The translations under genes were made by a program, and so were the position numbers. Of a stretch of 64,000 nt of DNA, positions 1,499-52,956 are shown one piece after another. Every line of letters begins with the position of its first letter. Position 1 is the first letter of the stretch. A model generated the notes under the pieces. It was not told the origin of the DNA. It worked only from the letters and a program-made list of their open reading frames with translations, and searched no databases. The DNA is from Squalus acanthias (Eukaryota): NCBI GenBank assembly GCA_030390025.1, contig CM059425.1, positions 43,090,001 through 43,154,000 of the forward strand. Reading direction: 5' to 3'.

Positions 1499-1707
1499 TT
1501 AGTGTGAGTGCCCTTTCCTTTCTGCCCCAACACCACTGCAGCCTACACTTCCCCTCGGCTAGTTGGAGCAAAACCTGCACAAACATTGCTGTAATCCTAC
1601 TTTGGGAAGCATGAGCCAAAGGGTACTTGGGTCTGCAGCCAATGCCAGTAAAGACACATCATCGGATTCAGCTTGAGATACCAATCAGCAAGCAAGCAAG
1701 TGTAGCG

Positions 1708-2543
1708 AGGGCAAAAATCCAACCCTCCTGTGTTGCTGGACTCATTGCCCCGATCTTGGCTGGGGCGGGTTTTGTGAGCGGTGGGGAGGAATTTTGTTCC
1801 GTGTGCTATGGAGTTAACTCCACAGCGTGCGTCTTTTTTTCTCCAGCAGTTTCCCCGCCTGGAAGCCAGCCTGATTGACAGGTTTGGCTCCCTGTCGGGT
1901 GGGGAACGCTCTGGAGGAGGCCGCAGCCCAGGACCAGGTAGGGAGCCTGCAGCTGGATTAGTGGGAGTGTGGGGGGGGGGTGGTATTTGACTCCGGTGGG
2001 GAGGTGTGGTGGTCGCCGATCATGGTGGGGGGGGTTCTGATCTCCGATCCTTGGGGGGATCTGATTCCCGATCCCGGGGGGTGAGGAGGTCCAATTCCCG
2101 ATCCAGGGGATGGGGGTCCGATTTCTGATCCCAGGAGGTCCGATTGCAGGGGGGGCGGGGGTGGTCTTTGGATGGGAGTGGGGAGTCCAATGGTGAGCTG
2201 GGAGGAATCACCCCTGCTCCACTTGGCCCACAAGCAGTGCTGTAAAGGCACTTATCTTTTCTCTGAAGCAGTCCTCACCTCCCTTTAGCTGCTGGGTTTC
2301 CCGATCCCCGGGAAATGCGGCCAGCTAGGGTTAAACCTGGAAGACAGGTTAAATATGAGGCATGCAGCCACATCATAATATTTAAATGAGCAAGCTGCTT
2401 CCTGGGAGCGTGTTGGTTACCCGCCTCTATCCCGTCTCCAGTTAAACCAGAAGTGGGCGGGTTGGAGTCTGGTTTGAGATTTAAAATTTTTAAAAATCCC
2501 ACCCGACCCCAAGCCACCCGTTTTTTGTGATTAAAATTAAGTC
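1708..2543. mobile_element. GC-rich non-autonomous DNA transposon-like repeat
   Basis: GC island with internal CCGATC-G(n) degenerate repeats and motifs like those of 39721-40354; ends uncertain. Confidence 0.5.
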
Positions 2544-3017
2544 AGCACCCCAGTTGGGTTATCAGCACATTATGTTTCCCAAATTAATGGAATTGAACAG
2601 GAGAAAACAAAAAGATGTGGTGTTAATTATATTCCTTTTTAACCATTTAATTTTTTATTTTAAAAAGTAGTCAGAATGCGTGAGCACACCACTTTCAACT
2701 TTGTTTCACAGAAATGTAACATCGGTGGTGAAATTAGATCTGTGCCGAGTACTGTATATCTGCCTCAAGAAAATAGAGCTCCATATGTCAGCAAATTTTG
2801 CTCGTCTTACCCTGTAGTACAGGTTTAAAAATCCGCATTCCCCATTTAAAAAATATGTTTGTAATTATCAGGTGCAAGTAGTCAGCATACTTTGACGTGA
2901 TCAATCAAATGTGACATCTCTGGTTAGCGGAATATGGATCAGCATTAGTATAGATACCTTAAGAAGCCCCAGTGTTGCCCTCTGATGGTCCAGTGTGTTT
3001 ATAGAATGATAAATTAA

Positions 3018-3317
3018 GGGGTGCATCTTCAGGCCTCCCGCTCAGTGGAAATGGTGCCCCGAAAATGGTGGACAATGGACTACCTACCGCCCTGTTTGCG
3101 CCATTGCTGTGGCCACAGCAAAGTTCCCTGGGGCCTACCACTGTGCGGCCAAAGCTACCCCGAGTCAGGTGTTAAGCCTATTGAAAATGCAAATCGGGGT
3201 CTGATGATGTCAATCCCAGTGCTGATGAGACCGGGCCCTCAGTAATGGACCGGGCCTCCCGCCGGGACTGCTGGGCGGCCAGCTGCCCAAACTCCACTTG
3301 GGGAGAAAATCTACCCC
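3018..3317. mobile_element. PIF/Harbinger-like MITE
   Basis: Ends GGGGTGCATCTTC and (rc) GGGGTAGATTTTC; left flank TAA. Confidence 0.55.
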
Positions 3318-3516
3318 ATGGAATTTTACCGCGCAGATGGAAGCCTTTCGGCCCAGCGTGCCTGTGCTGGCTTTGAAAGAGCTGTCCACGTCGTAGCAGC
3401 GACCTCTGTTGAAAAAAATCTAAACTCTCCTTTTGTTTTTTCAATGATGATCTTAATCATGATAAAAATGAGAAGTCGCACAACACCAGGTTATAGTCCA
3501 ACAGATTTATTTAATT

Positions 3517-3555
3517 TTACAAGCTTTCGGAGCTATTCGCTCCTTCCTCAGGTAA
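3517..3555 (-). ncRNA. Minimal type I hammerhead ribozyme motif (inverted copy)
   Basis: Exact reverse complement of 3607-3645. Confidence 0.8.
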
Positions 3556-3606
3556 GTTAGCAGTGAGAGAATCTCCCAGATTCTGGGAGATTCTCTCACT
3601 GCTAAC

Positions 3607-3645
3607 TTACCTGAGGAAGGAGCGAATAGCTCCGAAAGCTTGTAA
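3607..3645 (+). ncRNA. Minimal type I hammerhead ribozyme motif
   Basis: TTAC-CTGAGGA-A-GGAGC-gaata-GCTCC-GAA-AGCT-T-GTAA: helix I TTAC/GTAA, core CUGANGA, 5-bp helix II, GAAA, palindromic AGCT helix III. Confidence 0.8.
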
Positions 3646-4409
3646 AATTAAATAAATCTGTTGGACTATAACCTGGTGTTGTGCGACTTCTCATTTTTGT
3701 CCACCCCAGTCCAACGCCGGCATCTCCACATCTTAATCATGATAGGTTGCTCAATGTGCCTCCACAGAATGCATGTGACACTAAAGCATTAGGGGCACAT
3801 GTGAGATTTTATAAAAGTTGGCACTGTTGATGAATGACATTGAGGTTATGTTCCTAATATGAAAGAGCTCAATTTCAATATGTAAAATATTAAAAATGTA
3901 TCAGCTGAATCTGGTCAGTGATTTATATTTATTAAATCAGTATGCATGAAGTCACTGTTTTTTTTCATTGATTCAACTATTAGGTTTGGTGTGGGAATAA
4001 ATCACTGCTGTCCAAATGTTTACTGTGTAACTGCAGCGATCATTATATCTTTCATTCTGGGCACTGCTTGAAGGAAAAATAATCTGAGGAGGAGACCTCC
4101 CCTTGACAGTGAAACCATGATTTATAAGTCAGCAGCCTGCAATGCATTTATTTATTTTGGAACTTGGATACTGAACTTTTCTTTATTTTCGTGTAAACAT
4201 AAAAGTTGTAGTTATTCATCTGGGTGTCCAAAGGACATGTGAGACTACATGTTATTGATTTGCTATCAGTCCATTTGATTTGTCTTAAGACAAATCAATT
4301 CTTTTTTTGATTAATCTCCAAAATTCACGAAGCGAGCACTAAAGAGCCATCTGTAATTGTTCTCATTTTCCTAAGGGAGTTTGGAATGGGGATTGGTGCT
4401 GATTGATTT

Positions 4410-4605
4410 CCTCCTTCCCAGCTTTCTGTCCTTTTCTCCCCTCTTGTCCCAAAGACACTGACTTATGCCGGGTTTCACCGGCATCAGCGGCCTTTCAGTA
4501 CCTCACCCAAATGGCCATTCTTCATGTGTGAACCTGGACCATGAGTGCCAGCTGGCTATTTGACTATGTAGGTCATCACAGCTAAACCCGATCCTGTCTT
4601 TACTT
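4410..4605 (-). mobile_element. Family X SINE-like fragment
   Basis: cccaaatggccattcttcatgtgtgaacctggac...catcacagctaaacccgatcctgtc motif shared with other copies. Confidence 0.6.
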
Positions 4606-4655
4606 TAAAATTCATACTCATCACTTTCCAAACGGAGAGACTGGATAGTGAGCTC

Positions 4656-4676
4656 GAGAGAGAGAGAGAGAGAGAG
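4656..4676. repeat. (GA)n microsatellite
   Basis: About 10 GA units. Confidence 0.9.
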
Positions 4677-4784
4677 CTTGGCAGACATTTTCTCTGTCTG
4701 GTCTAGACTGATGCTAGTTCTAGCACCCCAATTGCTGCTTTGGCTGGAATCGTTCTGGGGATCAAATATTTTAATTTCTTCTTG

Positions 4785-5430
4785 AGATATGGACGATGTT
4801 GGCAAGAATGCATTTATTGCCCATCCCTGAAGAAGTGGTGGTGGACCATCTCCTTGAACCATTGCAGTTCTTGTGATGATGGTGTTCCACAATGGTATTA
4901 GGTAGCAAATTCCCGAATTTTGACATTGTGATGATGAAAGAAAGGCATGTTTAAGGATAGTATGTGACTTGGAGGGGAAGTTGGAGGTGATGGTGTTTCC
5001 ACGACTTTGTTGCTCTTGTCCTTCTTGGTGGTATAGGTCGCAGGGGAAGGAGATGCTGTTGAAATAAGTTTGGCAGCTGCTATAGTGCATTCTATAGATA
5101 TTACATACTACAGCCACAGTACGCCAGGGGTGGAGGGATGGATATTGAGTTCAGTGGCAGAGGCATTGATCAAGTGACCTGCTTTGTCCTGGATGGCATC
5201 AAGCTTCTTGAGTGTTGTTACGGCTGCACGCATAGAGTATACCATAACACTCCTGCCTTGAGCCTTGTAGATGGTGGAGAGGCAAAGAGGAGTCAGGAAG
5301 TGAGCCACACATCACCAAATACCAAGTGTCTGCCCTGGTCTTGTAGCTACGGTGTTGATATAGCCAGTCCAATTAAGCTTCTGGCCAATGTTAACCTGCA
5401 GGATGTTGAAGGTGGGGAACTCGGCAATTG
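4785..5430 (-). mobile_element. Degenerate CR1-group LINE 3' part (A-tailed family)
   Basis: Minus-strand TTLKKLDAIQDKAGHLI motif; reverse complement matches 29660-29890. Confidence 0.75.
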
Positions 5431-5536
5431 TGGTGCAGTGGACTCCTCCAACTTTCGAACCTACCCTGAGAGAGAGGGACATCTAGATTGGTCAGTAAAT
5501 CCACAGTGGATGTTTTGATCACTGACCTTCAGGCCA

Positions 5537-5933
5537 CACCTCGATTTCAAAATTCTCATCCTTGTTTTCAAATCCCTCCATGGCATCGCCCCTCCCTATC
5601 GCTGTAATCTCCTTCAGCCCCACAACCCCCCCGAGATATCTACGCTCCTCTAATTCTGCCCTCTTGAGTATCCCTGATTACCATTGGTGGCCGTGCCTTC
5701 TGTTGCCTAGGCCCTAAGCTCTGGAATTCTCTGCCTAAACCTCTCCGCCTCGTTACCTCTCTTTCCTCCTTAAGATGCTCCTTAAAACCTACCTCTTTGA
5801 CCAAGCTTTTGGTCACCTGCCCTAATTTCTCCTTATGTGGCTCGGTGTCAAATCTTTATCTTTTAATACTCCTGTGAAGCGCCTTGGGCCGTTTTACTAT
5901 GTTAAAGGTGCTATATAAATACAAGTTGTTGTT
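5537..5933 (+). mobile_element. L2-type LINE 3' end
   Basis: FKILILVFKSLHG and LWNSLP motifs; tail aaaggtgctatataaatacaagttgttgtt. Confidence 0.88.
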
Positions 5934-6924
5934 AACAAGCAGTATTTTGAGGTGATATACATTTGTTTGATTGGAAAGAATTGACAATTTGCTGACTGTT
6001 TTTCAAATTTAAAACTTTTAATTAATCAAATAGAATAGAATATCATCTTGGATTGCTGAGAATGCAGCAATCACTAACTGAATACTATAAATCAGGAAAT
6101 AGTAATACAGTAGTACTTCACATAATCTGTGGCCACTGGCACTTTCACTTAAAATGATTTTTGCTGAAAAACATTTGCTGTAAATGAGTTAAAATTACAT
6201 TTGGGGTAAGTTTAAATGTGAATAATTGGAAAATTATTTCACAACTAAAATTTCCCGATGAACAGAATCTTTTCTCAAAGCGTATGGATCAAGCAGGGTT
6301 CACAATAGAATGGATTGCGAATGATCTGCAGAAGGAATGTGCTTGGTAGGATTTCTTTATCCATGCCTTTGTATGTTCGTAAAAGAACGTTTATCTTGTA
6401 ATGTTTTTGCTATTCCCCACAGATTAACCTCATACGGAAATGCTGTTTCCCTCTTTTGTGGCAAGGCTTCTTGTAACACCCAGTGCACTAATCTTCAATT
6501 AAACTCACCTGCTAATTTTCCTTCCCTCCTCTTCGGAAAACGTTTCCTTCAATGGAAGCCCAAATATGAATTTTCATTCAGAATAGGATCTCAAAGTTCA
6601 AACTTTGATGTTGTAACATTATAGCTACCAGACCACTTAGCCTTGTGCTTTAACGTAACATTGCAGCAGCACAGTATACCCTCAGCCCTGGCTAAATCAT
6701 CTTTCATTATTTTTCTGGGCAGCAAGACGAAAGTAGAGCTTGTATTCATTCCAGTAGTTCTATGTTGCAGTTCTATTAGTTTTACACCAGTACTATTTTG
6801 GGAGTGGTACAAGCGGCAGCACTGAGGAATACGGCCTCATTCTCACCACTTTCAAATTGGGAAAAGACAGAGCTCTGTGAATTGGTGGCTAAACACACGC
6901 GCGGCCAGTGTAGAATATTTAGTC

Positions 6925-7290
6925 AATTTGTTCCTCCTTTCCATCTCCTGAATCTTGCTGGAGTATAGTTCCACATCACACCCGCAGCACCTCTAGTACT
7001 TTGCCCAAACAGCCATATTAAACCTTTGAGTCTAGAAATTGAATGTTGGCAGGTTATTTGACCAGGTGGCATTATGGATTAGCCCGATTCTGACTTCATC
7101 CAATGTCCACGTGCGCACATTTTGCAGCAGGGGTCATTGAAAAGCAATCAAGGCTGGGAACTCTGGCTGATTTATTATTTTCCCTAGCTCAGGCATGCTG
7201 ACATCACTTATGACATCTCTACTGCCACCCTGGCTAAGGTCAGTCAACTCAGCTGGGATCTTCTGGTATGCAAGCAGTGTCTCTACCCAC
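6925..7290 (-). mobile_element. Family X SINE-like copy
   Basis: Shared motifs cagcaggggtca, ctggctgat, ccctagc and tcagtcaactcagc. Confidence 0.6.
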
Positions 7291-7337
7291 TAATGTTAGA
7301 AAAGAGACAATTGCTCCTCTCCTTTTCAAGCATCAGT

Positions 7338-7470
7338 CAACAACAACAACAATAACTTGCATTTATATAGCGCCTTTAACATCCCAAGGCGCTTCACAGG
7401 AGCGTTATCAAACAAAATTTGACACTGAGCCACATAAGAAGGTATTGGGGCAGCTGACCAAAAGCTTGGT
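7338..7470 (-). mobile_element. L2-type LINE 3' tail
   Basis: (caa)n-cttgcatttatatagcgcc; reverse complement of about 5795-5933. Confidence 0.8.
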
Positions 7471-7959
7471 TCGAGTCATAAAATACTTTTTGTCTGGTTT
7501 TAAATTTAAATGTTAAAGTTTCACATCTGATACAAAACGTTGAGGTGATGCTGGTTTATCTGCATTTTGTGGCATTGTGTCACTGAAACCCCTCCACAGT
7601 GACAGAAAATGTACAATGAAAATGTATGAACTTCAAATTCCTCTGATCTTATAAATAACTAATGTAGTAGTGCAGATTTTAAACAGAATGGTTTTTGTTG
7701 TGTATCTTTTTATAATAGACATATTGATCATTTTGAAATGAGACAGCCTCCTGGTATAATGGAATAAGCAAAATAAAGGGTCAGATGTAACTCCTGTGAT
7801 GTGGTTTTTTACATTTGATGTGAGCAGGAGGGAAATTCATACAGGCAGCGGAAGGATTGAATCAGATAAGGATGTGGATTTTAAATGACAAAGAAATTAG
7901 TTTCCAGGGTCTTTTGAGTGGTTTTCTATTGAACCCTGTGGAGTCTCACTGAAAGTTTC

Positions 7960-8640
7960 TAGTCAATGTGAAGCTGTTATCAACAAAGGTAATCAAATAC
8001 TAGGATGTATCTCAAAGGCATTTGTCTCTAAATCAAAACAAGTTTTTCTAACCTTGTATAAATCAGTGATGAGACTGCTTTTGGAATATTGTATGCAATT
8101 TATGGCAGTCCATTTTCCAAAGGACATTGAAGGGTTTGAGCTGGTTCAGAGAAGAGTGAAGTGGTTTCCAAAATTTCGATGCCTAAGTTACAAAGAAAGA
8201 GTCACAGAACTGAACTTGCTTTGATTAACACAAAGATGTGGGGAGAAGGCGGAGATATGGGGGCAGTTTTCCCAATAGGCACTGGTAGCGGGAAGCCTTG
8301 CGGCACTTAGCGGAAAATGGCAGCCATGTTGACCGTTGTTTTCCGGTCACTGAAATTAATAGATGGAAAACCACGTGCAGTGTCCTCATGTTTTTCTGAT
8401 ATGCACTGGTGGTGGGCAAGGTTTTCTGCTGCCAGCCCAAATTCAGAAAACTGTCACACTGATCCTGGTCTTTAAAATACTGATGAAAATGTAGCATGTG
8501 TCAAGCGAGACTAAAGATCGGAAGAATTTTTTTCTGCAGGTTGGTAGATATGTGAAATAAACTTTCAGCAAAGACAGTCAGCATGGTGATTAACTGCTTC
8601 AAAATTAACCAGGATAAATATTTGGTGAGGAATGAAGGTT
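7960..8640 (+). mobile_element. Very old CR1 LINE fragment interrupted by a MITE
   Basis: LYKSVMRLLLEYCMQ-like motif; GDM/ILVFKIL is split by the 8259-8459 insert. Confidence 0.65.
8259..8459. mobile_element. Palindromic MITE nested in an old CR1
   Basis: GGGCAGTTTTC...GAAAACTGTC ends with internal dyad symmetry; removing it restores CR1 GDMILVFKIL. Confidence 0.65.
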
Positions 8641-9774
8641 GGAGGGCTAAGTATAGACTGAGGTGATCAGATGCTCTACAGGGAATGATGGTTCTTGTGC
8701 TGCTGGGGCTGGGAGGTATGTTCTGTGGAGGGTATCATGTCATGCTTAAATGCTGGAAATGTGGCAATGGATAGATATTCAACTGTTTTGCTTGACTACC
8801 TCTGGCAATCAGGAAGAATTTGTACACAACTTTCTTTCAGGAGGTGAAATAGGTGAGATAAAGTCCATAGATTGTACATGATCAATGGAAGCAATGGGTT
8901 GAATAGACTTTTCTCATTCAATGCTTTTTTTATTTTACAGAAAGGTAACGTGAAGTTCCTTGAATCCTGACATTTATGATTTAACAAATAGCTACTGCAT
9001 CAAAATTCTTTACTATTTTCTGTTAATGTAGTTTATGCTTCTGTTCTGGAATAATAGACCAACGTTGCTGTTTGCAGCCTACATTGTTGGACTAGAATTT
9101 CCTGCCTATTGACTGTGAATGGATTTTTTTTAGTCAAGTTGGATGAAAATAATGCTTTCTCAGTCGATAGATGTCTGTTACTACAATAACATTTTGCTTA
9201 GTGGGGCTCCCCAGGAGTTAGATTTTACTGTACTTCCAGCCTTTCCTGTCACGCCACATTTTCTTGTTTCTTTAAGAGCCTTCAATCACGGAATGGCTTG
9301 TTCTCATCTTCACAAGTCTACAGGGGAGATGACACCCTGCAGTTAATAGCTTCAAATTATTACCCTTTCTAAATACGTTGGTGTAATTTTTATGGAAGAT
9401 ATATGCAGATTTTTTTGCATGACTGGTGATGCGGTGAGATAATGCCCTTTCACAGGCTTGTAAAACAGATTAAATAGGACCTTCAGCAAGAATTTTGTTG
9501 TGATTTTTAGTTAGCAGGAATCTACTAACAGCTGTGTGCATTTCCTCTATTTCACACCCAATCTTTAGGCCAGTTGCTAATGTCCATCGTAGTGGAAAAT
9601 GTAAAGTGAGTTTACTTCACAGCAGGTAGGCAGTGGGAAAAACCTTGTGAAATGTAGAATAGGACTGAGCAAAACACTTCTCAACTTCTCATCAAAATGT
9701 GCCAGACAGCATTTTGCATGGAATCGTTACTTTTAGCGGCAAAACTTTGTTCCAGAGGAAAACAATAAGGGACC

Positions 9775-12637: not shown

Positions 12638-13153
12638 GACCCAGGATTTTCAGCTTTTATTTTTGACAAGCTTCAAGTGCCTGACTCTTCAAAACGAGGT
12701 CGAAATGAAGGTGAGAGCCGATGTGAGATTTGTGCAACACACCTAAATCAGCTGCGAAAGGAAGCCATTCAGATGGTCCATACACTCGACCAAGCATCCA
12801 GTCAGGAAATACCTGAGCTACCGCACAGTTCCATTGCAGTGAGCGGCGTTTCATCAAGAATTGCTTCCCAAAATATGGTCACCCTTTCATCACAAAGAGA
12901 CTGGCCTCTGGTCACAGGACAAACGAGCAGACAGCCTGGAAAATCAGGAAATGTAATCTCTGGTACAGAGAGAAGGAAAGGACTTGGCTGGCCTCAGGGT
13001 ACAGGCAGCCTTTCAAAGTCCAGTGTTCAAGTAACTGTTGGTTCCAGCGGTCTTAGCAATGCTCTGAACTCAGTCACCATTCAGGCACAACAGTACCTTG
13101 AGGGTATGTGGAGTATCTCTAGAGTCAACAACTTTCTTCCTCATGCCTATTTG
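12638..13153 (+). CDS. KIF26A: KIF26A-like kinesin, internal coding exon (172 codons, phase 0-0)
   Basis: Acceptor ttttctcctcttttcAG (AG 12636-37) and donor TTG|GTGAGT at 13154. Translates DPGFSAFIFDKLQVP...CEICATHLNQLRKEAIQMV...VTIQAQQYLEGMWSISRVNNFLPHAYL, recognised as the KIF26 N-terminal region. The EGMWSISRVN motif resembles KIF26A more than KIF26B (from memory). Confidence 0.9.
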
Positions 13154-15264: not shown

Positions 15265-15836
15265 AAATGCCTCGATTTTAAAATTCTCATCCCTGTGTTC
15301 AAGTCCCTCCATGACCTTGCTCCTCTGTATTTCTGTAAACTCTGCCAGCCCTACAACCAATGGTCCCTCTAAGCTGCACGTGGCCATGTAACAATCTGAA
15401 AGGTCCCAGGCCGGCCGCTCACCAGCTTTTCCATTGTAAATACCGCGCATGCGCAGAAATTTAAATGGACTGCACATTAAAAGAAACAGGCCGCGCAGAA
15501 CAAAGCACGGCTGACAGGGAACATTGCCTACAACCCTCCGAGGACGCTGCGTTCCACCAACTCTGGCCTCTTGTCCATCCCCCACTTCCTTCGCCCCACC
15601 ATTAGCTGTCTAGGCCCAAAGCGCTGGAATTCCCTCCCTAAAACTCTCCGCCTCTCTCTCTCCTCCTTTAAGACCCTCCTTAAAACCTACCTCTTTGACC
15701 AAGCTTTTGGTCACCTGTCCTAATGCCTTCTTCTTTGGCTCGGTATCAATTTTTTGTCTGATTACGCTCTTGTGAAGCAGCTTGGGATGTTTTATTATAT
15801 TAAAGGTGTTATATAAATGCAAGTTGTTGTTGTTGT
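15265..15836 (+). mobile_element. L2-type LINE 3' end interrupted by a hAT MITE
   Basis: Similar to 5537-5933; (gtt)n tail. Confidence 0.88.
15358..15526. mobile_element. hAT-type MITE (169 bp)
   Basis: 8-bp TSD CCTACAAC (15350-15357, 15527-15534); TIRs CAATGGTCCCTCTAAGCTG and CAATGTTCCCTGTCAGCCG (15/19). Confidence 0.85.
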
Positions 15837-15978
15837 AATACATTTCTATTTATTAGAGCTCTTTTGGATAATATGAATAATAGCACAGATCTTTTCACTG
15901 TATGTCAGTCAGGGTGATCTGTGAGGTAATCGAAGAGCTCTATAAATCAAGTCTTTAAATTGATTTCTTGAGTCTTAT

Positions 15979-16430
15979 AACAACAACAACAACAACAACT
16001 TATATTTATATAGCACCTTTAACATAATAAAACATCCCAAGGCGCTGCACAGGAGTATTTTAAGACAAAAAATTTGACACCGAGCCGCAAGGATAAATTA
16101 GGGCAGGTGACCAAAAGCTTGGTCAAAGAGGTAGGTTTTAAGGAGTGTCTTAAAGGAGGAAAGCGAGGTAGAGTGGCGGAGAGGTTTAGGCAGGGAATTC
16201 CAGAGCTTAGGGCCTAGGCAGCAGAAGGCACGGCCACCAATGGTTGAGCGATTATAATCAGGGATGCTCAAGGGGGCAGAATTAGAGAGCGCAGATATCC
16301 CGGGGGGTTGTGGGGCTGAAGGAGATTACAGCGATAGGGAGGGAGAGGCCATGGAGGGATTTGAAAACAAGGATGAGAATTTTGAAATCGAGGCGCTGCT
16401 TAACCGGGAGCCAATGTAGGTCAGCGAGCA
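15979..16430 (-). mobile_element. L2-type LINE 3' end (relatively young)
   Basis: (aac)n tail; close reverse complement of 5537-5933; possible TSD CTTAT (15974-78, 16431-35). Confidence 0.9.
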
Positions 16431-18799
16431 CTTATTTAAGTAGCATTTATTTCATTTGAAAAATAGTAAGTGAATAGTATGGCTGGCATTTTAGAATTTT
16501 CAAAGCAGCTCCCACTTTGCAATGATCAGGACCGAATGTTTGAACATTAAAAAAATCCATGATGAGAATAAGCCATTAACCCATCCAGCCCACTCCCTGC
16601 AGAGTTGATGTATGATCATTTTAACAGGGTCTTCTTCTTCTCCATTCCCCTCCCAACCATTGAGGCTGTATTGGCCAAGGAATAGTGAAAATATATTTTA
16701 AAATTTCAAACAAAAGTCATTGGGTTTATCAGTTTAAAACACTATTGTGCTTCAAGTTCAGCTCAGTGTATAAGCTGAACTCAAGAAGAAATTTGCCCAG
16801 TCACCCAGTGAGTTCATTGAACACTCCCATCCCACTACCACTGAAGCTACGTTTGAATTTCTTATTAATTTGTGCTGTCTGTTGCTTAAAATGATCCCTA
16901 CAAAGAAAATACCTTGTATACCTTAACCTTTCTTCCTGCTTTCAGCTAGTTTTGAATTTACTAATCAATAATTGCAATGTTTCCTAAGCTTTAATACTTA
17001 TGGAGGCTACCACATGTGTCCTTGTGTGATGCCACAATTTAAAGAGTATAACACATGACTGATAAAACCAGACTTGTGAGTTGTTTAACTATGGCATTGC
17101 ACCATATCCTGATGGTGTTCTATTTATACAGTGAGTAACTGGTTATAGTCTTATTTAGTTTTCAGGCATTCGTTTAAATAAAGAACATTTAAAGAGATTG
17201 AAAGACCTATCGAATTCATGAATAAAGAAAATGTAAAGAAATGAACAACCTGCCTTGTATTCATATACATCACTGAGATAGAATATGGGAGCTACATGTC
17301 ATTATGCAGTTCATTCAAATTTGTGGCATTGGGGATTATAGGTGATGAATTTGAGTATGTCTTGTCAAGGGATTGATGATTCATATTTGATAGATTGTAG
17401 TATGTTTTTTATGACATTGTCAAATGTTATTTCAGCCTTTCATTGTTGGTGCCCTTGTTTAAATTTGATTTTTTTTGCTTGTGACAGCAGCAATGAGAAA
17501 TGTGGTCATGTAGTGATTGTCGAAAATAGTCTCAGGAGAAAGTGGTATCCCGCACATGTAATTACACTGTTCCCGAGGCCAAACCGGTTGTATAACCTTT
17601 GATTATAAACACACACAAGAATAATTCAAGACATCTGAGATTTAAAAAGTGGAAAATTCAAATATTTTGTGCAGCAAATGGGGCCTACTTTCCGTTCAAA
17701 TACTATACTGCAGGCTGCCACCAATTGAAAATTACTGAGACACTTTGGCTTGTTCCTTCTGTGAATTTTTCATAAATTCAATTTAATGTAAATTAAACCC
17801 GCATTTGTGTAATGAGGTTTGTGTTTTAAAGTATTTACCAATTGAAGGAATCATTACTTAAAATTATTTTTGGAACTTTAAAGTCATCTGGGTTGCTTCA
17901 GTATTGCATTTGTCGAATATAATTTTTAAAAATTTGTTCTGTTGTATTGATTTGAATCCACTGCTGTACCAGTAATTGATATTTAATTCGGATTTAGTTC
18001 TATGAGTCAATGTGAGAGCATTGGTTATATAAAGAGAATTTAATTCAGGGCTGAGGTAATATAAGATGAGCAGACATCTCTAGATGATGTAAGTGTTAGC
18101 CAATGAGAATGCGTAAAAATAGTCAGCACAGGGTGGCATAGAGTCATGACTCATGACAAAATCTGCCAGATCTACAGAATATTTCGAATCATTTTTCCAG
18201 TAGAATATTCACATATCATCATCCAACAATAACACTATTTACAGAACAATTTTAAGAAGCGTAAATATAAACTGGTTATATGTACAATTAAACATCAAGT
18301 AGCCTGTTGGCATACATAGTTGTAGACTATAGCCCAGAATTTCCTGGAAAGTTTCAGCATAACTACAGAGTGAGAGTGGCATTGCACCAATTTTTAACCG
18401 AAGAAATTTGTGCCGAACTGATTTACGCGGAAACACCGATACACGTGAATTACCTCAATCATTTGAGGCACTTCCAAGATACATGTGCCGAAACCCTCTG
18501 GTGCTCATTTACATAGCCCTGCCCCTATGTAAAAGACCAGCTCATGTGAGTTTCCTGGATTTACGCTGGTGTAGATCTACACCCAAAAATGTAGGCGCAG
18601 CATGGCCCGAAGTCACCTGAAATGGGCGTAGCTGAGATTTCTGTTTTTTTTTTAACTGGGACCAGCACTAAACTTAAACAAAGTGCTATCAATCTCAGTA
18701 CACTCAATGTTTCGGTTCCCCACCCCCTCCCCCACATGTTGAGAAGGACTAAGCAGCTGGAATGGCCTTTGCAATTGGCATACCCTTGTTCTGCATATT

Positions 18800-18894
18800 T
18801 CTTCACTTCACCTGACGAAGGAGCAGCCGCTCCGAAAGCTTGTGATTTCAAATAAAACTGTTGGACTATAACCTGGTGTCGTGCGACTTCTCAC
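18800..18894 (+). mobile_element. Penelope-like pLTR mini-insertion with TSD
   Basis: Closely similar to 3607-3693; flanked by the 11-bp direct repeat TTCTGCATATT (18789-18799, 18895-18905). Confidence 0.85.
18808..18845 (+). ncRNA. Minimal type I hammerhead ribozyme motif
   Basis: TCAC-CTGACGA-A-GGAGC-agcc-GCTCC-GAA-AGCT-T-GTGA; helix I TCAC/GTGA covaries with TTAC/GTAA of the 3.6-kb copy. Confidence 0.8.
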
Positions 18895-19019
18895 TTCTGC
18901 ATATTAATGGCAGAGGAAGAGGAGCAGCGGAGGCAAGGGGCTCTGAGAGTGACGCACCACAGCAGTACATAGTGATAGACTGAAATCACTAGCATTGCAA
19001 CACAATAGCCGTTACTGAA

Positions 19020-22150: not shown

Positions 22151-22320
22151 GCACAGACAACAATGACAGAGAGTGGAAAAGAAGGTTTGTCTCAAGAAAC
22201 CATCATCCCACAGAACAGCAGCAGTCAAGCCTGGGTAGCAGGCCCACCAGCCTCCCAGAATTCATTACTACCTGGCAGGATTTCTTCCGGCACTTCAGCT
22301 GCAGCTTCTTTCTTCATCAG
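22151..22320 (+). CDS. KIF26A: KIF26A-like internal coding exon (170 nt, phase 0-2)
   Basis: Acceptor ttttttgtttttAG ending 22150 and donor CAG|GTATTG at 22321. Translates AQTTMTESGKEGLSQE...SSGTSAAASFFI(R); in frame with both neighbouring exons. Confidence 0.9.
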
Positions 22321-22577
22321 GTATTGGATTGTTTCATTCAAATCGCTGGAAAGCAGTAATTTAGGTTAAACATTGTCAAATCTTGGTTGGTCAACATGAT
22401 TTTTCACAAAAAATACTTCAGAAACAAAATAATTTTAATCAGCCAATAAATTGGCAGGAATGACAGATATTGGCTAACCGTTAGAAATGAATTTTAAGGG
22501 CAATATTATTGGATAATTTGATACATTTTATTTCTCTGTCCCCTCATTTTGTAAATTATTTTTCTCTTGTCTCCTTG

Positions 22578-33250: not shown

Positions 33251-36231
33251 ACACTGAAATAAACGGAAAATTATTTTGTTTCCTGCAATTGTCTCTTTTG
33301 TTCTTAAGTCTTTCTGTGTCACTCTCTCTGCTTTTCAAGTTCTTTTCAACTTTTTTTTTCTCTCTGTATAAGTTTCACACATATTTTCTGGCTCTCTATT
33401 TACCTTTTCCTCCTCCAAGTCTCATCTTCAGTGTGTCTCCTCTCTCATCTATATCACTTTCAGTCTCACTGGGTGGCTCACACATCCCTTTAGTGATGGT
33501 CATAGTTTCTATCTCTTGCCTTTTTTAAAAGCCTAGGTATGCAGCAAGGTAGTAGTCAGTATGTAAAAGGTTGGAGGTGAGTACTGGGAACAAGCAAAAG
33601 GTACTGTCCGGGAACCGGGGGAACATGTGTGGATGAGGGAGAAAATGGCAGTCTGGGGATTCAGGCTGGGTGAAAATGGGAGGAGGATCTGCAGCCTGGA
33701 GGGGTGGGGCCAGGGGTTGGTTTGTGGGACACAGTGGATGGAGGGGGCCAGAGCTTTTGAAGGAGTTGGGTCCTGGGAGTACTTCTAGGGAATGGGATCT
33801 GTCAGTCTTGCTGGAAATTGAGATTTGGCATGCTCATGGCTGTAGTGTAGCCTTATTTTCGCCCTTCAAAATCATGCATTGCAAAATGTTACGACCAGTG
33901 CATGTGCAATGTGAGGCTCTGCCAGTGGTATGGAGCCTCACAAAATTGGCCTTATATATGTACTGTTTTACATACATACAAGAGCGACATTTGCCATGTG
34001 GGGTCTCAGGCAAAAGTTCGGTTGGAAAGGCATGTTTGCAATAGATAATATAAAAATAGTTGACGAAATGATCAGGGATTACCATTGCGTAGGTGCCCTT
34101 TCATTGGATCCGCGCGGGTCCCTGATTGGCTCTAGTCGCCGTTCAATTGCACAGGCTGCAGGGTCCTAGTGCCGCTCCTGCATACATAATATCTACAATA
34201 TATTAAATTTGCACTCTTATTTGAGCATCACCACTGTGACGCACAGCCACTTGTGCACATTTCTACCACCAGGCGGCACTTCATAAGCTCCAGATACTGC
34301 AGATTCCCATAACTATGCCTACAATATCCCAAATGCGCTCCGAGGGAAATTTGCTTTCCTGGTCAAAGCCACAGGAAATCCATAGAGTTACTATGAAAAT
34401 CCAAAGGAAACAAACCAGAAGATCCATATAGTTACTATGAAAATGTACAGAAACACAACTGCTACAGTGAAGACCATGTTGGCTCAAAGAAATGTAGTTA
34501 TAACCATGGTAATTAAAGCTAGGATTTTGCTACATTGATAAAATCATCATGTGAAAGATGTGACAGGTCTGTTTCTCACAGAAGGGTCAGGTCAGACATT
34601 GCTACCGGGTGTATTGTTAGGACATCTGTTTATTTGTTGTCAGTATTGATGGGTAATTAAGGAAACAATAAGTGGAACTGGAGACCAGTAACAATCATGG
34701 TGGCATTTCCTAGCATTTCCTTTATAGTGCTAACTTGATACAATTAGTTTTGAGTTTGGGATTGGTTGCAAAGTTTTATTGTTAATATAATAGCAGGTGT
34801 TGTTAGAATACTGTGGTTGCTAGGATTTATAAAAGTAACTAACCATAGGTTACTGCGATAAGAATGATTTGAACAGAGGCAAATGCTAAATTAAGTGCTA
34901 AATCCGTTTCAATGAATTAATAGGGCTGTACCAGCAAAGCTATGTAAGGCATCGTTTATAAGAAACCATATTGAAAGGCTGCAAACTGTGCTTCTTCAGA
35001 TGGCATTTTCAAATTTGAATCTGAAAATATATCAACACGTACCTTTTGATGATTCAGTTTTTAGATGGAACTAATAGGGGCATAGTGGTCAAAAATCAGC
35101 TTCTTCAATTGAACATTATACTATGTAGGAAAATTTGTAATCTACTTTAAAATGATCAGACTTCAGCACATTGCCATGTGTTCATGAAATCTATGAGATT
35201 CCTATCTTTTGACAAATGCAATGCTAATGAGAAAACAGCAATCAATGTGTTATAGTACCCCTGTGGTCTATTCTTCATGGCAGTTGGAATCACATATTGC
35301 TAAAAATCATCTCATCTATCTCCTTCTCTTTAATCCTACGACCTCAGTGTTGTGCAGCAGTGCTAAATTGTGAAGTTGTTCAGTGCCTGGAGGAACAGGT
35401 TAGGGACCCTCCCTTGACACTTGATCTTTGAGTGTTTCTAGATGTGCCGTATATTACTATCCTCTGCCGTGTGGCTTGCTGTGAAGAAAGAACTCTCCAG
35501 AGCACCTTAAAAGACAGCTCCTATTAAGCATAAAACAGGTTAAGTGAAATGCAGCTACAGATAGAAATCAGAAAAAAGAACAAAGTTGCACAGTGCAGAT
35601 GTAATTATAAGAAGGGGAAAAGCATAAGACTTAAAAATAATGCAGAAATGCTAGGTTCCTTGTTAGTGGACTTAAAAGGATAAGACTGTTATCCTTTGGG
35701 GATTGCTATTCAATCTGGTCTATAGCCATATCCTGCAGTTTGACAGTTTTTTGGTGTAAAGTAAGAAAAGACAAACAAAAAGCCAATGAAAGGCAAATCT
35801 CAGTGTGAATCAAGATTTTGACAACTGTTTCATTTCAAGGATTATGTCAAGGATGCTATTCAAAATTTAAACCATTAGGTTTTACTATTTCACATTTTCA
35901 ATGTCTTCAATACATGAATTCTGCAGTAACTTGAAAAGAACAATAAAGACTTATGAAATGTATTTTTCTGTTTTTAGAATTCTTTTAATCAAAATTTGAA
36001 ATCTGTACTTCTGAATTGTGTTCTTTTAATAATATGTGCTAATCAAGTTAACAGAAGGAAACTGACAGTTGATTCAGGCTAGTGCAGGACTCCATTGAAA
36101 TTATTTTTTTAATTAACTGGGGAAAATGGTCTTCAATTCTTAGATAAAATAACAGGAACTTTATATGCAATTAAATTGTAAGAATAATTTCTTGTAGCAC
36201 AGCAATTGTGATCAGTGGCTTCAGAATAGTG

Positions 36232-36310
36232 CCCATGAAGGAGCAGCCGCTCCGAAAGCTTGTGATTTCAAATAAAGCTGTTGGACTATAACCTGGTGTT
36301 GTGCGACTTC
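36232..36310 (+). mobile_element. Penelope-like pLTR mini-insertion, 5'-truncated inside the hammerhead core
   Basis: ATGAAGGAGCAGCCGCTCCGAAAGCTTGTGATTTCAAATAAA...GTGCGACTTC, nearly identical to 18817-18890. Direct repeat TCAGAATAGTG at 36221-36231 and 36311-36321. Confidence 0.85.
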
Positions 36311-38734
36311 TCAGAATAGTGTAATCATCTTGTCTTAATTGAAGAACTGGCCACGGTGATAAATACTGATATAATAGCAATTGGTCCATGGCTAATAGTA
36401 ATTGCTGGACTAAAGACATGCTTTCTCAAACAACTAAGTTAAAGCACCGATAAATGCTGTTGTAGATTTTGTTATGGGTAATTCAGCAAGAAGCAAATGT
36501 CTGAACTATTGACACATTTTGAAAGCACTTAAGAGTAACTGCATCTTCTAAATGATTTTGTAAATCTCCGTTAAAAGTAGCCATTTTTAAAGCTTGCATA
36601 GAAATGTCTAAATTTTAGGTTTCCATTAATTAGATGAGTTTAATTTGGTGGTGTAATAATCTACTTACTATGTTACCAATGAAGTTGGTAATTAATTAAC
36701 AATTATGTCTTTCACTCCACTTTTATATTCCTAAATTATAATTGTCAATTGAATGCTGTTTTATCTTGCTTAATTTGTAAAATAAATTATATAAAAATAT
36801 GAAAAGTATGTAATGACATCACACCACAAGTGTTAAAAGGTTTGGAAGGGTATGACTGTAATTTACAAGTTTGGTTGAATTCTTGTTGTAAAACAAAGTT
36901 CATGTCATAAAATAATGGAAAATATAATCAATACACTGCCTTTGGGATGCGAGGGTATCTGCATATCTAGAAAGTAAAAGGCATATAGTTTACCTAAAAG
37001 ATATTCTTCATGACTTGCATTGCAGATGTCCTGTGCAAAGTTTGCACAGTACCAGATGGGTCAGATAAGGAATAAGATGATTACAAGCCTCTAGTTTAAG
37101 GCATTGTATCCACTGAGGAAATGGCAGAAACAGCCAGGATGCAGTGCCAAAGAGTCTGTGAAGCATTAGATCCTGGTATGAAATCTACAAACAAAGAACT
37201 CAGAAAAACTTCTAGTTCAAGTTTTCCCATTAGGATTTCAGAACTGTCTTTTGATGGCTATTAATATTATTGGGAATCGGGTTGAACAAACACTTATCAA
37301 ATATGAATAGGCCCAACAAAACACGATTGCTGCCCCTGCACAGAAAGGCAAGGCTAGAGACCTGAGGCCTAAGTGCTAGGATTATGTATTGGTTCGGTAA
37401 GGTGAAAACATCATCCTTTGCTTGCTTATGAGCTTTATCATTACAGTGTTGACTCCTGATGGAAGTACTGACCTTAATCTTGAAGTAGGAAATGTTGTAA
37501 GGCTTGCTCTCAATTCCTAATGACGTCCCATTCTGATTCTTGATGCTGGAAAGCATTCTGCTGGCAGGGAAATTTGGCCTTCTGGAATGCCCTAGGAGGG
37601 TACCAATTGGGACTTCAGCACGGTCACAATCAGGCCCAGATAACTGAAGGTACAAGCAAAGTGAAAGAACAGTTTCCTGGGTCTTTCTCAAGAGTGTAGT
37701 CGCATAAGTCAGTCATGTGACTTGTATACAGCTCTTCGAGACTCAGGGTGCAGCTCTTACTGAATGTAAGACACTGAAAGCTGAGGCTATATCAAAAGGC
37801 ACCAGTATATACTGGTAGCACATGCAAATTAAATAGAACCACAGATACATTCTGTCATTCTTCCTATCTGCTATGTAGTTTATATGGAGAGAATCCTAAG
37901 AGTGTTACAGCGCAGAAATAGCTCATGCTGCCCATCATGTCTGTGCTGGTGTTTTTCTCCACGAGATATTTAGGCCTAAAGTTTTTGCTTGCATGCCAGT
38001 AGTGAGGAACCTCACCCAGTGCACATTGGAACGTGGCAGGTGTGCTGCAAGCATGATTCTCAGCTGCCGCACATACTTGGAAAATTTAGGTCCTAGTCTA
38101 ACCCCACTCTCCTGCTTGCTCCCCCATATCCTTTAATATTCCTCTTGATCAAGGAATATCTAATTTTGTTTGAAAACAATTTGCAGACTCTGCCTCAACA
38201 AAGGTTAGTGGCAGAGAATTCCATCTTGCTGACCAATGGAAACAAACCATCACTTCATATACAGTGAAAGTGAATTCATTTAATAGACGGAGTATATCAC
38301 AAATTTGATCGGAGGCTCATATTTAGCATACCCATAGGTAGGACATTAGTAGCACAGCAAAATGCTATATTCAGTATATTGGAAGCTGAGGAGGCCGTTT
38401 AGCGTCCAAAAAAAAAAGGGTGCTGTGCAGTCCAAGTTCTAGGCTATTATTTCTAGCTGTGTGCTCCTATCTCAGTGAAGAAGACGAATGGTGGATGAAA
38501 ACTATCTGAAGAAATTATTTGGCTAGATGTTTGATAACTTATGTTTAATGAATGATAAATGAAAAACTGATCTATTTGATTGCTCAGCTATTCTTGTTTA
38601 CCTGTTCCTCACTGGTAGTTGCTAACTGAATTAAACTGCTTTTGATTTGTTCACATTTAGTCAGTCAGATTTTTGATTGGTAGCTTAACAGGTAAGCCCT
38701 CATTTCAGTCACTTAACCAGTTTCTGTCCTACGA

Positions 38735-46400: not shown

Positions 46401-48209
46401 GGGAAAGTTGTGGTTTATTGGCTTCATGTGCTGGTTATAAACCCTAACTAGATGATGGATTGGAGGGAACTGTAAGTAAATTCAAGCATCTTTTCCTGTA
46501 TTGATTTACAACAGTTGACTCCAGACACCTTCATTATATTAGTTATCAATCATATTTAGTAGATGATTCTTTCAGGATTTTCAAAGGAATTAAAGAATTT
46601 TAGGATTATTTGAGTTTGTATAAAATATGACATTTACTACCCCCCTTAATGAACCCATAGAACATTCCATGCTTTTTTTTAATGTTGTTTAAACCCTTTC
46701 ACTGATTTGCAATTGTAATTTTGATCTTTACTGTAATGTTGCAATTTAAATTTGTTGCTGCCTTTCTGATGTCAGAGGTGGAACTCGTTCAAATGCAGTC
46801 ATACTGACTTGATGCTGGCTCAGAAAGCCAGTGTCCATGTAATATTCAAACATTACGTTTAAATTTCCAATTAATTTTGTAGAATCTTTTATCAAAATAA
46901 AAATTCTGCTACCACTGATAATTGAGAAAAGTAGTCTAATATTTTAAATACTGTTTCAGTACCCAAAATAATGAAATACATCAAAAACATTCTTTAGAAA
47001 GGGACTGGGAGTATCAATTTCTAAACCTGTTATGTGTCTTTTTATATCGGAATTCCCTCTACTTGACTGCTATTTGTAATCATACCAAGCAATATGTTAG
47101 TTTTTTTTTCTACAATATGCTTTCTGCTGTAAGAGATTGCTTCATATAAACTTGCAGTAGCAGCAGGTTAAAGCTTTGTCTGCCTGAATGAACAGTAGAT
47201 GTGCAAATGCAGCCTTTACATCCTGCTTCCTTTCACAGCCTCTCCCAAGGGAAATCCTACACTAGACTTTATTGAAGTAATAATTATTTCATCAGGTCTT
47301 GTGTATTTCTTGCCTGTATTTGGACTGGAACCTCCAGAGGCTACAGTTGTCATTTCTACCCAGGACTGACCACTTGCATGCTGATGTACTGCTTGCAAAA
47401 CATATTTGCACAATTCAAAGGAGGAATGCTAGTGACTTATATAATGCTTTTTGAAAGTTAAAAACAGTTGTAGTCATAATATCCTGCTGTTATTCAAATA
47501 AATGCCCTGTAGGAAAGGTGAACTTTTAAATCCAATTTACTGTCAATGCTGTAAAGCTTGAATGTGTGATTAGTGATGAATTGACAAAATTAATTTTTTA
47601 TCCGCGATCTGAAAATGCATTAGTGCTTTCATGTTTTGTTTCATTGAGCTATGCTGCTTTAACGAGCCACTATGGTGGCGAATTATTTATGGACTGCTGT
47701 GTTTGCCTGCTGTTTGCACCTCTTGAGTAAACCAGAAACACAACTGATATAGTAATTAATGGGGAGCTATAAAAGTGACCATTACTATACATTTTACCAT
47801 GTACCAGAGGAATGCGAATCCTCTGAAATGCTAATAACTTGTTAGATCACTATGTACTGTATGTTCCAGAGTAGCCCATCTGGCCTTATAGTGACAGGAG
47901 GCTGATTTCAGCTTTTATGGTGTTGCTGAGATTTCGGCAGCCTTGGACTCAGCTGCTGAAGCTGTTCAGCAAGTTATAGTCTAATTGAAACTCTGCTAGG
48001 GAGAAATTAAGTGAATATTGTCTTGGCCATATTTCTGCCTGAATCTGCCTATATTAGTCTCCTGACAGAACATTCCTATGGAATTTGATTAGAATCAAGT
48101 GAGTTGATTTGTTAAACAGGGAATGATGACATTGAACATCTGTTTTGCTGGGCCAAATTACATTTGGCTCTTAGTAACACTGCTGTTTTTCCCCCCTTAC
48201 ATTCTACAG

Positions 48210-48393
48210 AGCAGCGCAGAAGCTGAATCTCTCTACGAAGCAAAAGAAAAACCACCCACTTCTCCAGCATTCGCATGAGCTCTCAAACTGCAGAACAAAT
48301 TTCAGTGGTATTTTGCAAGTGTCCCCTCCCCCAGCACCACCATGCCTTTTGAGGGCGGTGTGTAAAGTCAAGGACAACCCAGGCATTGGCAAG
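48210..48393 (+). CDS. KIF26A: KIF26A-like internal coding exon (184 nt, phase 2-0), just before the motor domain
   Basis: Acceptor tttttccccccttacattctacAG ending 48209 and donor AAG|GTACGA at 48394. Translates (R)[16 protein letters not shown]...[32 protein letters not shown], a conserved KIF26 segment. Missed by the ORF track. Confidence 0.93.
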
Positions 48394-51573: not shown

Positions 51574-52956
51574 CCTGACATCAGTCGTAGGGAAAATGCT
51601 AGAATCTATTATTAAGGACATGGTAACAGGGCACTTAGAAAATAATAATAGGATTGGGCAGAGTCAACACGGATTTATGAAAGGGAAATTGTGTTTGACG
51701 AATCTGTTAGTTTTTTGAGGTTGTAACTAGCAGAATAGATAAGGGGGAACCAGTGGATGTGGTGTATTTGGATTTTCAGAAGGCATTCGATAAGGTGCCA
51801 CACAAGAGGTTATTAAACAAAATTAGGGCTCATGGGATTGGGGTAATATACTAGCATGGATTGAGGACTGGTTAATGGACAGAAAACAGAGAGTAGGAAT
51901 AAGCGGGTCATTTTCGGGTTGTAAGGCTGTAACTAGTGGGGTACCGCAAGGATCAGTGCTTGGGCCTCAGCTACTCACAATCTATATCAATGATTTGGAT
52001 GAGGGGACAAAATGTAATATATCCAAGTTTGCTGATGATACAAAGCTGGGTGGGAATGTAAGTTGTGAGGAGGATGCAAAGAGGCTTCAAGGGGATATAG
52101 ACAGGCTAAGTGAGTGGGCAAGAACATGGCAAATGGAATATAATGTGGAGAAATATGAAGTTATCCACTTTGGTAGGAAAAATAGAAAAGCAGTGTATTG
52201 TTTAGATGGTGAGAGATTGGGAAATGTTGGTGTTCAGAGGGACCTGGGTGTCCTTGTACACGAATCACTGAAAGTTAACATGCAGGTACAGCAAGCAATT
52301 AGGAAAGCAAATGGTATGTTGGCCTTTATTACAAAGGGATTTGAGTATAAGAGTAAAGATGTCGTACTGCAATTATATAAGGCCTTGGTGAGACAACACC
52401 TGGAGTATTGTGTACAGTTTTGGTCTCCTTTACTAAGAAAGGATACACTTGCCATAGAGGGAGTGCAACAAAGGTTCACCAGACTGATTCCTGGGATGGG
52501 GGGATTATCCTATGAGGAGAGATTGAGCAGACTAGGCCTATATTCTCTAGAGTTCAGAAGAATGAGAGGTGATCTCATCGAAACATACAAAATTCTTACA
52601 GGGCTTGACAGGGTAGATGCAGGGAGGATGTTTCCCCTGGCTGGGGAGTCTAGAACCAGGGGTCACAGTCTCAGAATAAGGGGTCTGACATTTAGGACTG
52701 AGATGAGGAGAAATTTCTTCACTCAGAGGGTTGTGAATCTTTGGAATTCTCTACCCCAGAGGGCTGTGGAGGCTCAGTCGTTGGGTATATTCAAGGCAGA
52801 GATCGATAGATTTTTGGATATTAAGGGAATCAAGGGATATGGGGATAGTGCAAGAAGGTGGAGATGAGGTAGAAGATCAGCCATGATCTTATTGAATGGC
52901 GGGACAGGCTCGAGGGGCCAAATGGCCTACTCCTACTCCTAATTCTTACGTTCTTA
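51574..52956 (+). mobile_element. 5'-truncated CR1 LINE (HER1-like): RT C-terminal half plus 3' UTR
   Basis: ORF 51875-52867 has SGVPQGSVLGP, FADDTKL, HLEYCVQFWSP and FFTQRVVNLWNSLP. Upstream QHGFMKG and YLDFQKAFDKVPH are frameshifted; tail ttcttacgttctta. Confidence 0.95.

Follow-up and report, generated by a model that had tools for sequence, protein, structure and literature searches.

PLE insertions that combine an inverted pLTR, a 31-bp tail, a target duplication and a palindromic joint have been described previously (PMC3846280) and are summarised elsewhere (PMC8557442, PMC8969392). The palindrome layout is thus already described for PLEs and is a known signature. The closest described examples are the Adineta vaga units Pen2a, Pen2 and Pen3a (PMC3846280; scheme in Fig. 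2 of PMC8557442), which carry an inverted, 5'-truncated pLTR at the head, a 31-nt tail at one end, a target duplication spanning the whole unit and a palindrome at the inverted joint. The minimal hammerheads of metazoan pLTRs are characterised by a type-I core, a 4-bp helix I, an extra base after A9, G10.1-C11.1 and a palindromic 15.2-16.2 (PMC4209133); single motifs of this kind showed no cleavage and dimers low cleavage, and in Schistosoma, hammerhead pairs lie on opposite strands 100-700 bp apart (PMC4209133). For PAc, a Poseidon-type PLE of Anolis carolinensis, the element protein nicks and extends both target strands, starts at two sites bracketing the tail and reportedly primes without homology, and the inverted-head and second-strand steps of PLEs are left unvalidated (PMC11167929). 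Dual priming has been proposed for L1 (PMC2837659), and Chlamydomonas acquires very short, 5'-truncated PLE insertions de novo in its introns (PMC9977147).

The locus analysed here lies in a 64,000-nt stretch of shark DNA (the window) and repeats this architecture in a much reduced form (Table 1). By sequence comparison, the unit is best read as a head-to-head pair of 5'-truncated PLE pLTRs, an architecture known from PMC3846280 and PMC8557442, and our main reading, to which we assign a probability of roughly 0.88, is that a single retrotransposition of an abundant shark PLE family left two short head-to-head cDNA copies of the pLTR end in a KIF26 intron. The unit shares with the Adineta vaga examples the inverted, truncated head pLTR, the one-end tail of 31 nt, the unit-wide duplication and the palindrome at the inverted joint. 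In contrast to those units, it has neither an ORF nor a second direct pLTR and consists of two stubs only (265 nt), its duplication measures 15 nt as opposed to 8-10 in the rotifer examples, and its arms are exactly equal. Four of the five features of an endonuclease-positive PLE insertion were found: an inverted, 5'-truncated pLTR at the unit head, with the parent continuing upstream of 3580 with other sequence; the optional one-end tail of 30-40 nt (31 nt here) together with two 3' end classes (3691-3703 and 3730-3732); a target duplication at an AT-rich target (15 nt, 80% A+T) with an apparent empty site in a relative; and a hammerhead motif in the pLTR, recognised by a descriptor and by a compensatory stem I pair, with no match from the Rfam models. 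The fifth feature is a parent ORF that unites a telomerase-like reverse transcriptase with GIY-YIG. A word-indexed protein search with the peptide of the frame 3652-3732 gave no candidate linking the arm to a PLE ORF. The single match in a representative protein search, an unnamed tandem-repeat peptide agreeing repeatedly at 6 of 12 residues, was rejected. The frame is open across the pLTR end and the tail, and many family copies continue it with an in-frame ATG (loose-end consensus, low agreement), which is possibly the ORF start of the parent.

The sequence-only reading of this DNA had described a perfect palindrome of 235 bases (3464-3698) with a 1-nt centre, a 31-nt tail on one side and a 15-bp target-site duplication flanking the unit, and each of these elements was borne out. 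All 117 of 117 pairs around T3581 are complementary, with a mismatch at the next pair outward; the runner-up perfect inverted repeat in the 64 kb (spacer of at most 10 nt) has arms of only 12 nt. The tail occurs only on the right side, and the left arm is without it. Base 3464 is counted twice, as the final base of the left duplication and the opening base of the left arm; the insert proper runs from 3465 to 3729 (265 nt), contains no ORF and is most likely inert. The duplicated 15-mer has no other copy in the window on either strand, the repeat does not extend, and the chance of an exact 15-nt match within 60 positions is about 2e-7. As the family sequence reaches the equivalent of 3732, the right duplication opens with three bases that also fit the element. 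In the window, element ends overlap their targets by 1 base (3464), 3 bases (3730-3732) and 3 bases (36311-36313), whereas PAc is reported to prime without homology (PMC11167929). The PLE insertion signature proposed for the locus (inverted pLTRs, a one-sided tail of about 31 nt and a target duplication) likewise agrees with the published units.

Table 1. Coordinates of the palindromic unit, its family copies and the host gene exons in the window (strand "." where none applies).
Feature	Position	Strand	Remarks
Left target-site duplication, 15 nt, 80% A+T	3450..3464	.	Last base common to left arm
Left arm: inverted, 5'-truncated pLTR without tail	3464..3580	-	Ends of tail-less family copies cluster at the equivalent of 3691-3703
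Minimal hammerhead motif (C3 at 3551, N17 at 3521)	3517..3555	-	Descriptor match
Symmetry centre, T3581	3579..3583	.	On parent-element GAATTC, one A short of the even-centred form
Right arm: 5'-truncated pLTR, sense with host gene	3582..3698	+	Sequence comparison within the window
Minimal type-I hammerhead motif	3607..3645	+	Descriptor match; traits compared with PMC4209133
AATAAA motif, candidate poly(A) signal	3651..3656	+	Mirror at 3506-3511 on the - strand
PLE tail, 31 nt	3699..3729	+	Family sequence continues to the equivalent of 3732
Right target-site duplication	3730..3744	.	Alignment of the organism C contig starts at 3730 (apparent empty site)
KIF26 exon downstream of the insertion	12638..13153	+	Pfam, protein relatives, tblastn
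Solo tail-less copy, sister subfamily, full minimal hammerhead	18805..18894	+	11-nt duplication, 18789-18799 and 18895-18905
Further KIF26 exons	about 22160-22321; about 48200-48393	+	tblastn
Solo tail-less copy, truncated inside the hammerhead core	36237..36313	+	11-nt duplication, 36221-36231 and 36311-36321

To place the unit within its family, contigs from 4 of 24 public runs were aligned to positions 3551-4500, the left flank lying outside the aligned region. The arm repeat is very abundant, with 1,637 to 9,641 contigs per run in the four runs, and its summed depth is about five orders above that of the flank, a value that should not be taken as a copy number. Loose ends of the family cluster behind 3691-3703 (without tail) and behind 3730-3732 (with tail), the latter in all four runs, and two end clusters with and without the tail are the expectation from two reverse-transcription starts. 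PAc likewise has two 3' end classes bracketing its tail and an AT-rich target (PMC11167929). Its ORF starts inside the hammerhead, whereas the shark hammerhead contains no ATG and family copies continue with an ATG after the tail. The two solo copies in the window belong to a sister subfamily and are identical to each other at 75 of 77 positions; both are single, tail-less and 5'-truncated, each with its own duplication, so that a tail-less end requires no hairpin. In all three insertions in the window the hammerhead strand is in sense with the host gene.

The hammerhead motifs were located with a descriptor that we wrote from the minimal-hammerhead definition. It matches three times in the window, with C3 at 3611 (+), 3551 (-) and 18812 (+), and once in 30 block-shuffled windows. 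The motif on the + strand comprises stem I (3607-3610/3642-3645), stem II (3619-3623/3629-3633), the core CUGAGGA (3611-3617) with an extra A at 3618, GAAA (3634-3637), a palindromic GC (3638-3639) and a cut region with U16.1 at 3640 and U17 at 3641, with cleavage predicted after 3641. All the minimal-hammerhead traits given in PMC4209133 are present, namely the type-I core, the 4-bp helix I, the extra base after A9, G10.1-C11.1 and the palindromic GC for helix III. Between the two copies that could be compared, the present one (TTAC/GTAA) and that at 18.8 kb (TCAC/GTGA), helix I differs by a compensatory pair; the third copy is truncated. At the gathering score, Rfam returned no matches in the 64-kb window, and none of its 16 sub-threshold matches at 3400-3800 is a hammerhead. 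As in the Schistosoma pairs the two motifs lie on opposite strands, although helix II measures 5 bp in the shark motif as compared to 7-8 in Schistosoma (PMC4209133). The predicted lowest-energy folds of an arm alone are unremarkable (z -0.36 to -1.13) and lack a full hammerhead, with a stem I probability of 0.21, and in two-copy cofolding the double-hammerhead fold is not the predicted lowest-energy state. The proposal of two back-to-back hammerheads therefore stands in so far as each arm carries a motif, but because the motifs are on opposite strands, no transcript has two in sense; a transcript contains one sense motif and its antisense. A hammerhead motif and an AATAAA lie on each strand (3611 and 3651 on the + strand, 3551 and 3506 on the - strand).

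Evidence for occupancy of the site comes from organisms A and C, the organism B run X6 having a coverage gap at 3743-3855. The right joint is present in two of two organism A runs, each with one contig that starts at 3710 within the tail, crosses the duplication and enters the flank; the tail side of these joint contigs measures 20 letters, which is below the 31-letter bridging mark. It should be noted that the organism A runs represent two samples from two studies, and that X2 may be related to the source of the assembly. For organism C, a 1,651-nt contig aligns to 3730-4500 only, with 17 substitutions and 1 gap in 771 positions (2.3% flank difference), and contains at least 401 further letters unlike the tail. 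Organism C thus appears to have an empty site that starts exactly at the duplication. Because contigs drop alleles, we do not take X2 and X5 to lack an empty allele.

The arms differ at 0 of 117 positions, which bounds their divergence below 2.5%, close to the A-C flank distance of 2.3%. Among the family copies, the diagnostic AA at 3646-3647 accounts for about 56-58% of summed depth in both runs of organism A, for 6-35% in organism C and for less than 0.2% in organism B, the flank of which shows 2 differences in 497 bases. This pattern indicates that the AA subfamily, nearly absent from organism B, expanded in lineage A. The insertion itself appears to postdate the divergence from organism C. 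The distribution of the subfamily across A and B is better evidence of youth than the symmetry of the arms. The insertion is young on the scale of species, yet common to several haplotypes. Hence, the description of the insertion as very recent can be retained only in part: the apparent empty site in organism C and the subfamily argue for youth, but symmetry only bounds divergence below 2.5% and two samples share the insertion. In the flank, all four runs have A at 4334 and both organism A runs have G at 4335, which points to a private variant or a minor sequence error in the window.

Perfect palindromes are a known class of artefact. The unit could reflect an assembly or library fold-back, or a solo copy of the ordinary kind duplicated in inverted orientation at the DNA level, and the left joint and the unit's own centre are not among the contigs listed for the aligned region (3551-4500). 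We nevertheless consider this very unlikely, given that the 15-nt duplication encloses both arms, that the mirror ends at the family's tail-less end instead of continuing into the tail and flank, and that the centre falls on the parent's hexamer. The artefact raised as a concern in the sequence-only reading is not seen at the right joint, which is recovered in two independent organism A runs. A long inverted repeat with a duplication could also be produced by a MITE or fold-back DNA transposon, and the sub-threshold matches to miRNA models could point to a microRNA hairpin. These identities are extremely improbable, since the inverted repeat does not reach the right end of the unit, where the tail separates the arm from the duplication, and since the family consists of variably 5'-truncated single arms, with solo truncated copies and ends that are not uniform; no miRNA score exceeds about half of its gathering score, and the hammerhead and tail are marks of PLEs. 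The sub-threshold Rfam matches at 3400-3800, mostly to hairpin miRNA models, were set aside as generic stem matches. Non-LTR retrozymes (bioRxiv 10.64898/2026.07.22.740005) are likewise short, ORF-less, hammerhead-bearing and pLTR-related, but they are direct tandem repeats of monomers in the same orientation; the shark locus has no direct tandem, its arms are inverted and a double hammerhead cannot arise in cis, and the retrozyme identity was therefore rejected. Pattern scans of prokaryote, viral and metagenome contig collections gave 0 matches, as expected for a vertebrate repeat. With regard to a possible link with the human Eulor or UCON hairpin repeats, the available text of PMC5753468 names only UCON13 as Penelope and does not mention palindromes, and bioRxiv 10.1101/2024.12.14.628481 likewise yielded nothing specific.

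The manner in which the two arms were joined can be addressed through the symmetry centre. Loose ends that precede 3580 in X5 (8 contigs at an agreement of 0.99) and 3588 in X6 (1 contig) place a GAATTC of the parent exactly at the centre, and one X2 contig has an extra A behind 3579, corresponding to the even-centred form, at a depth of 121 compared to 7.6 for the single-copy flank; the hexamer argument draws on one locus, short loose-end consensuses and this one X2 contig. Elsewhere in the window, no near match that could have templated the inner arm or the tail was found (best 9/27 and 11/31 mismatches). The mechanism that we prefer, at about even odds, is dual priming, in which both target nicks would prime cDNA and the two cDNAs would anneal at GAATTC. 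The GIY-YIG nuclease would nick both strands of the target at a stagger of 15 nt. Reverse transcription would be primed at the with-tail start by the 3' end of the bottom strand, with three bases of overlap, and at the tail-less start by that of the top strand, with one base of overlap. Both cDNAs would halt about 120-150 nt in and, being of the same (minus) strand, could pair only at a self-complementary word. Pairing at the parent GAATTC would then allow each to template the second strand of the other, with the loss of one A either during joining or subsequently from the tip. This last step is called for by the odd centre, which is one A short, whereas annealing at the hexamer predicts a clean even product. 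In L1 twin or dual priming (PMC2837659), both nicks likewise prime cDNA and an inverted piece comes to lie within one duplication, as is proposed for the shark unit, but L1 twin priming uses two non-overlapping parts of one RNA and the shark unit would use the same part twice from two fixed starts. Application of dual priming to PLEs was not found in the literature searched, which lay mostly outside subscription papers, nor in the available text of PMC11167929.

Fold-back self-priming, in which a cDNA or antisense RNA snaps back and copies itself and a nuclease resolves the hairpin at the tail boundary, is a plausible competitor that we place somewhat short of even odds. It guarantees identical arms, its odd centre would fold as a hairpin with a 3-nt loop, and it corresponds to the published readings of palindromic inverted joints as self-priming on an antisense template (PMC3846280) and of the tail as a product of nuclease resolution (PMC8557442). 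However, there would be almost no stem at GAATTC before extension, the truncated cDNA end is predicted to fold elsewhere and weakly (-1.2 kcal/mol, within the window), and copy-back would have to halt exactly at the tail-less start, which the solo copies use without a hairpin. Alternatively, the palindrome may be mobile in its own right, as a non-autonomous element whose full length is transcribed and inserted again. One X2 contig over the centre has about 16 times the single-copy depth, and for mobilisation in trans pLTRs are all that is needed in cis (PMC3846280), but the locus differs from that contig in its own centre, a hexamer hot spot would account for the recurrence, and a hairpin of -225.6 kcal/mol would be a poor template for reverse transcriptase, making mobility of the whole unit unlikely.

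How PLEs make inverted heads and complete second-strand synthesis is an open question, and what is worth keeping from this locus is the coincidence of a centre on a natural hexamer with two outer ends on two start sites, which makes the question of second-strand synthesis countable. As a tentative generalisation, rated a little under even, dual priming may apply to PLE head-to-head units at large, with sense RNA primed at two starts and identical cDNAs joined at a self-complementary word. If true, one rule would cover the one-sided tail, the head-to-head orientation and the joint palindrome without antisense templates, and the GAATTC of the AA subfamily would be a hot spot that repeatedly seeds perfect hairpins into introns. 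Counts of joints within one genome, in a high-copy shark subfamily rich in small head-to-head units and with a fixed self-complementary word, could separate the two models.

The host gene was identified with Pfam on 148 peptides, of which 11 were splice-site candidates and 137 were drawn from the 758 stop-free frames of at least 40 residues (all 59 of at least 90 among them); the search revealed a KIF26 domain at 12.6 kb. The closest of 90 protein relatives are two shark proteins named KIF26B (97% and 95%); tetrapod KIF26A stands at 73% and other KIF26B entries at 38-39%, and the gene is probably a KIF26A orthologue. With 4 of the 90 relatives, tblastn recovered three + strand exons, and the preceding exon is unmatched anywhere in the window. 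This places the palindrome inside a KIF26 intron, 8.9 kb above the acceptor of the exon at 12638, and the exon mapping thereby upholds the assumption that the unit lies in pre-mRNA. The predicted pre-mRNA fold contains the full stem (-225.6 kcal/mol, z -35), and stem II, which has a modelled probability of 0.88 when the right arm is folded by itself, drops to about 0 in the full context. The arms are therefore predicted to pair completely in pre-mRNA and to mask the single sense hammerhead, in line with the RNA stem of about 117 bp proposed from the letters alone, the dominant stem in the model being 117 bp. Whether the unit affects its host gene KIF26 is a matter of speculation. Elsewhere in the window, a 346-residue frame at 51827-52867 (+) carries a reverse transcriptase domain (Pfam RVT_1, E 6e-11) and represents a truncated LINE piece, which we take to be CR1-like. 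Two older LINE-end repeats at 15270-16430 lie tail to tail, 149 nt apart and 85% complementary over 89 nt, and form a second, weaker intronic stem.
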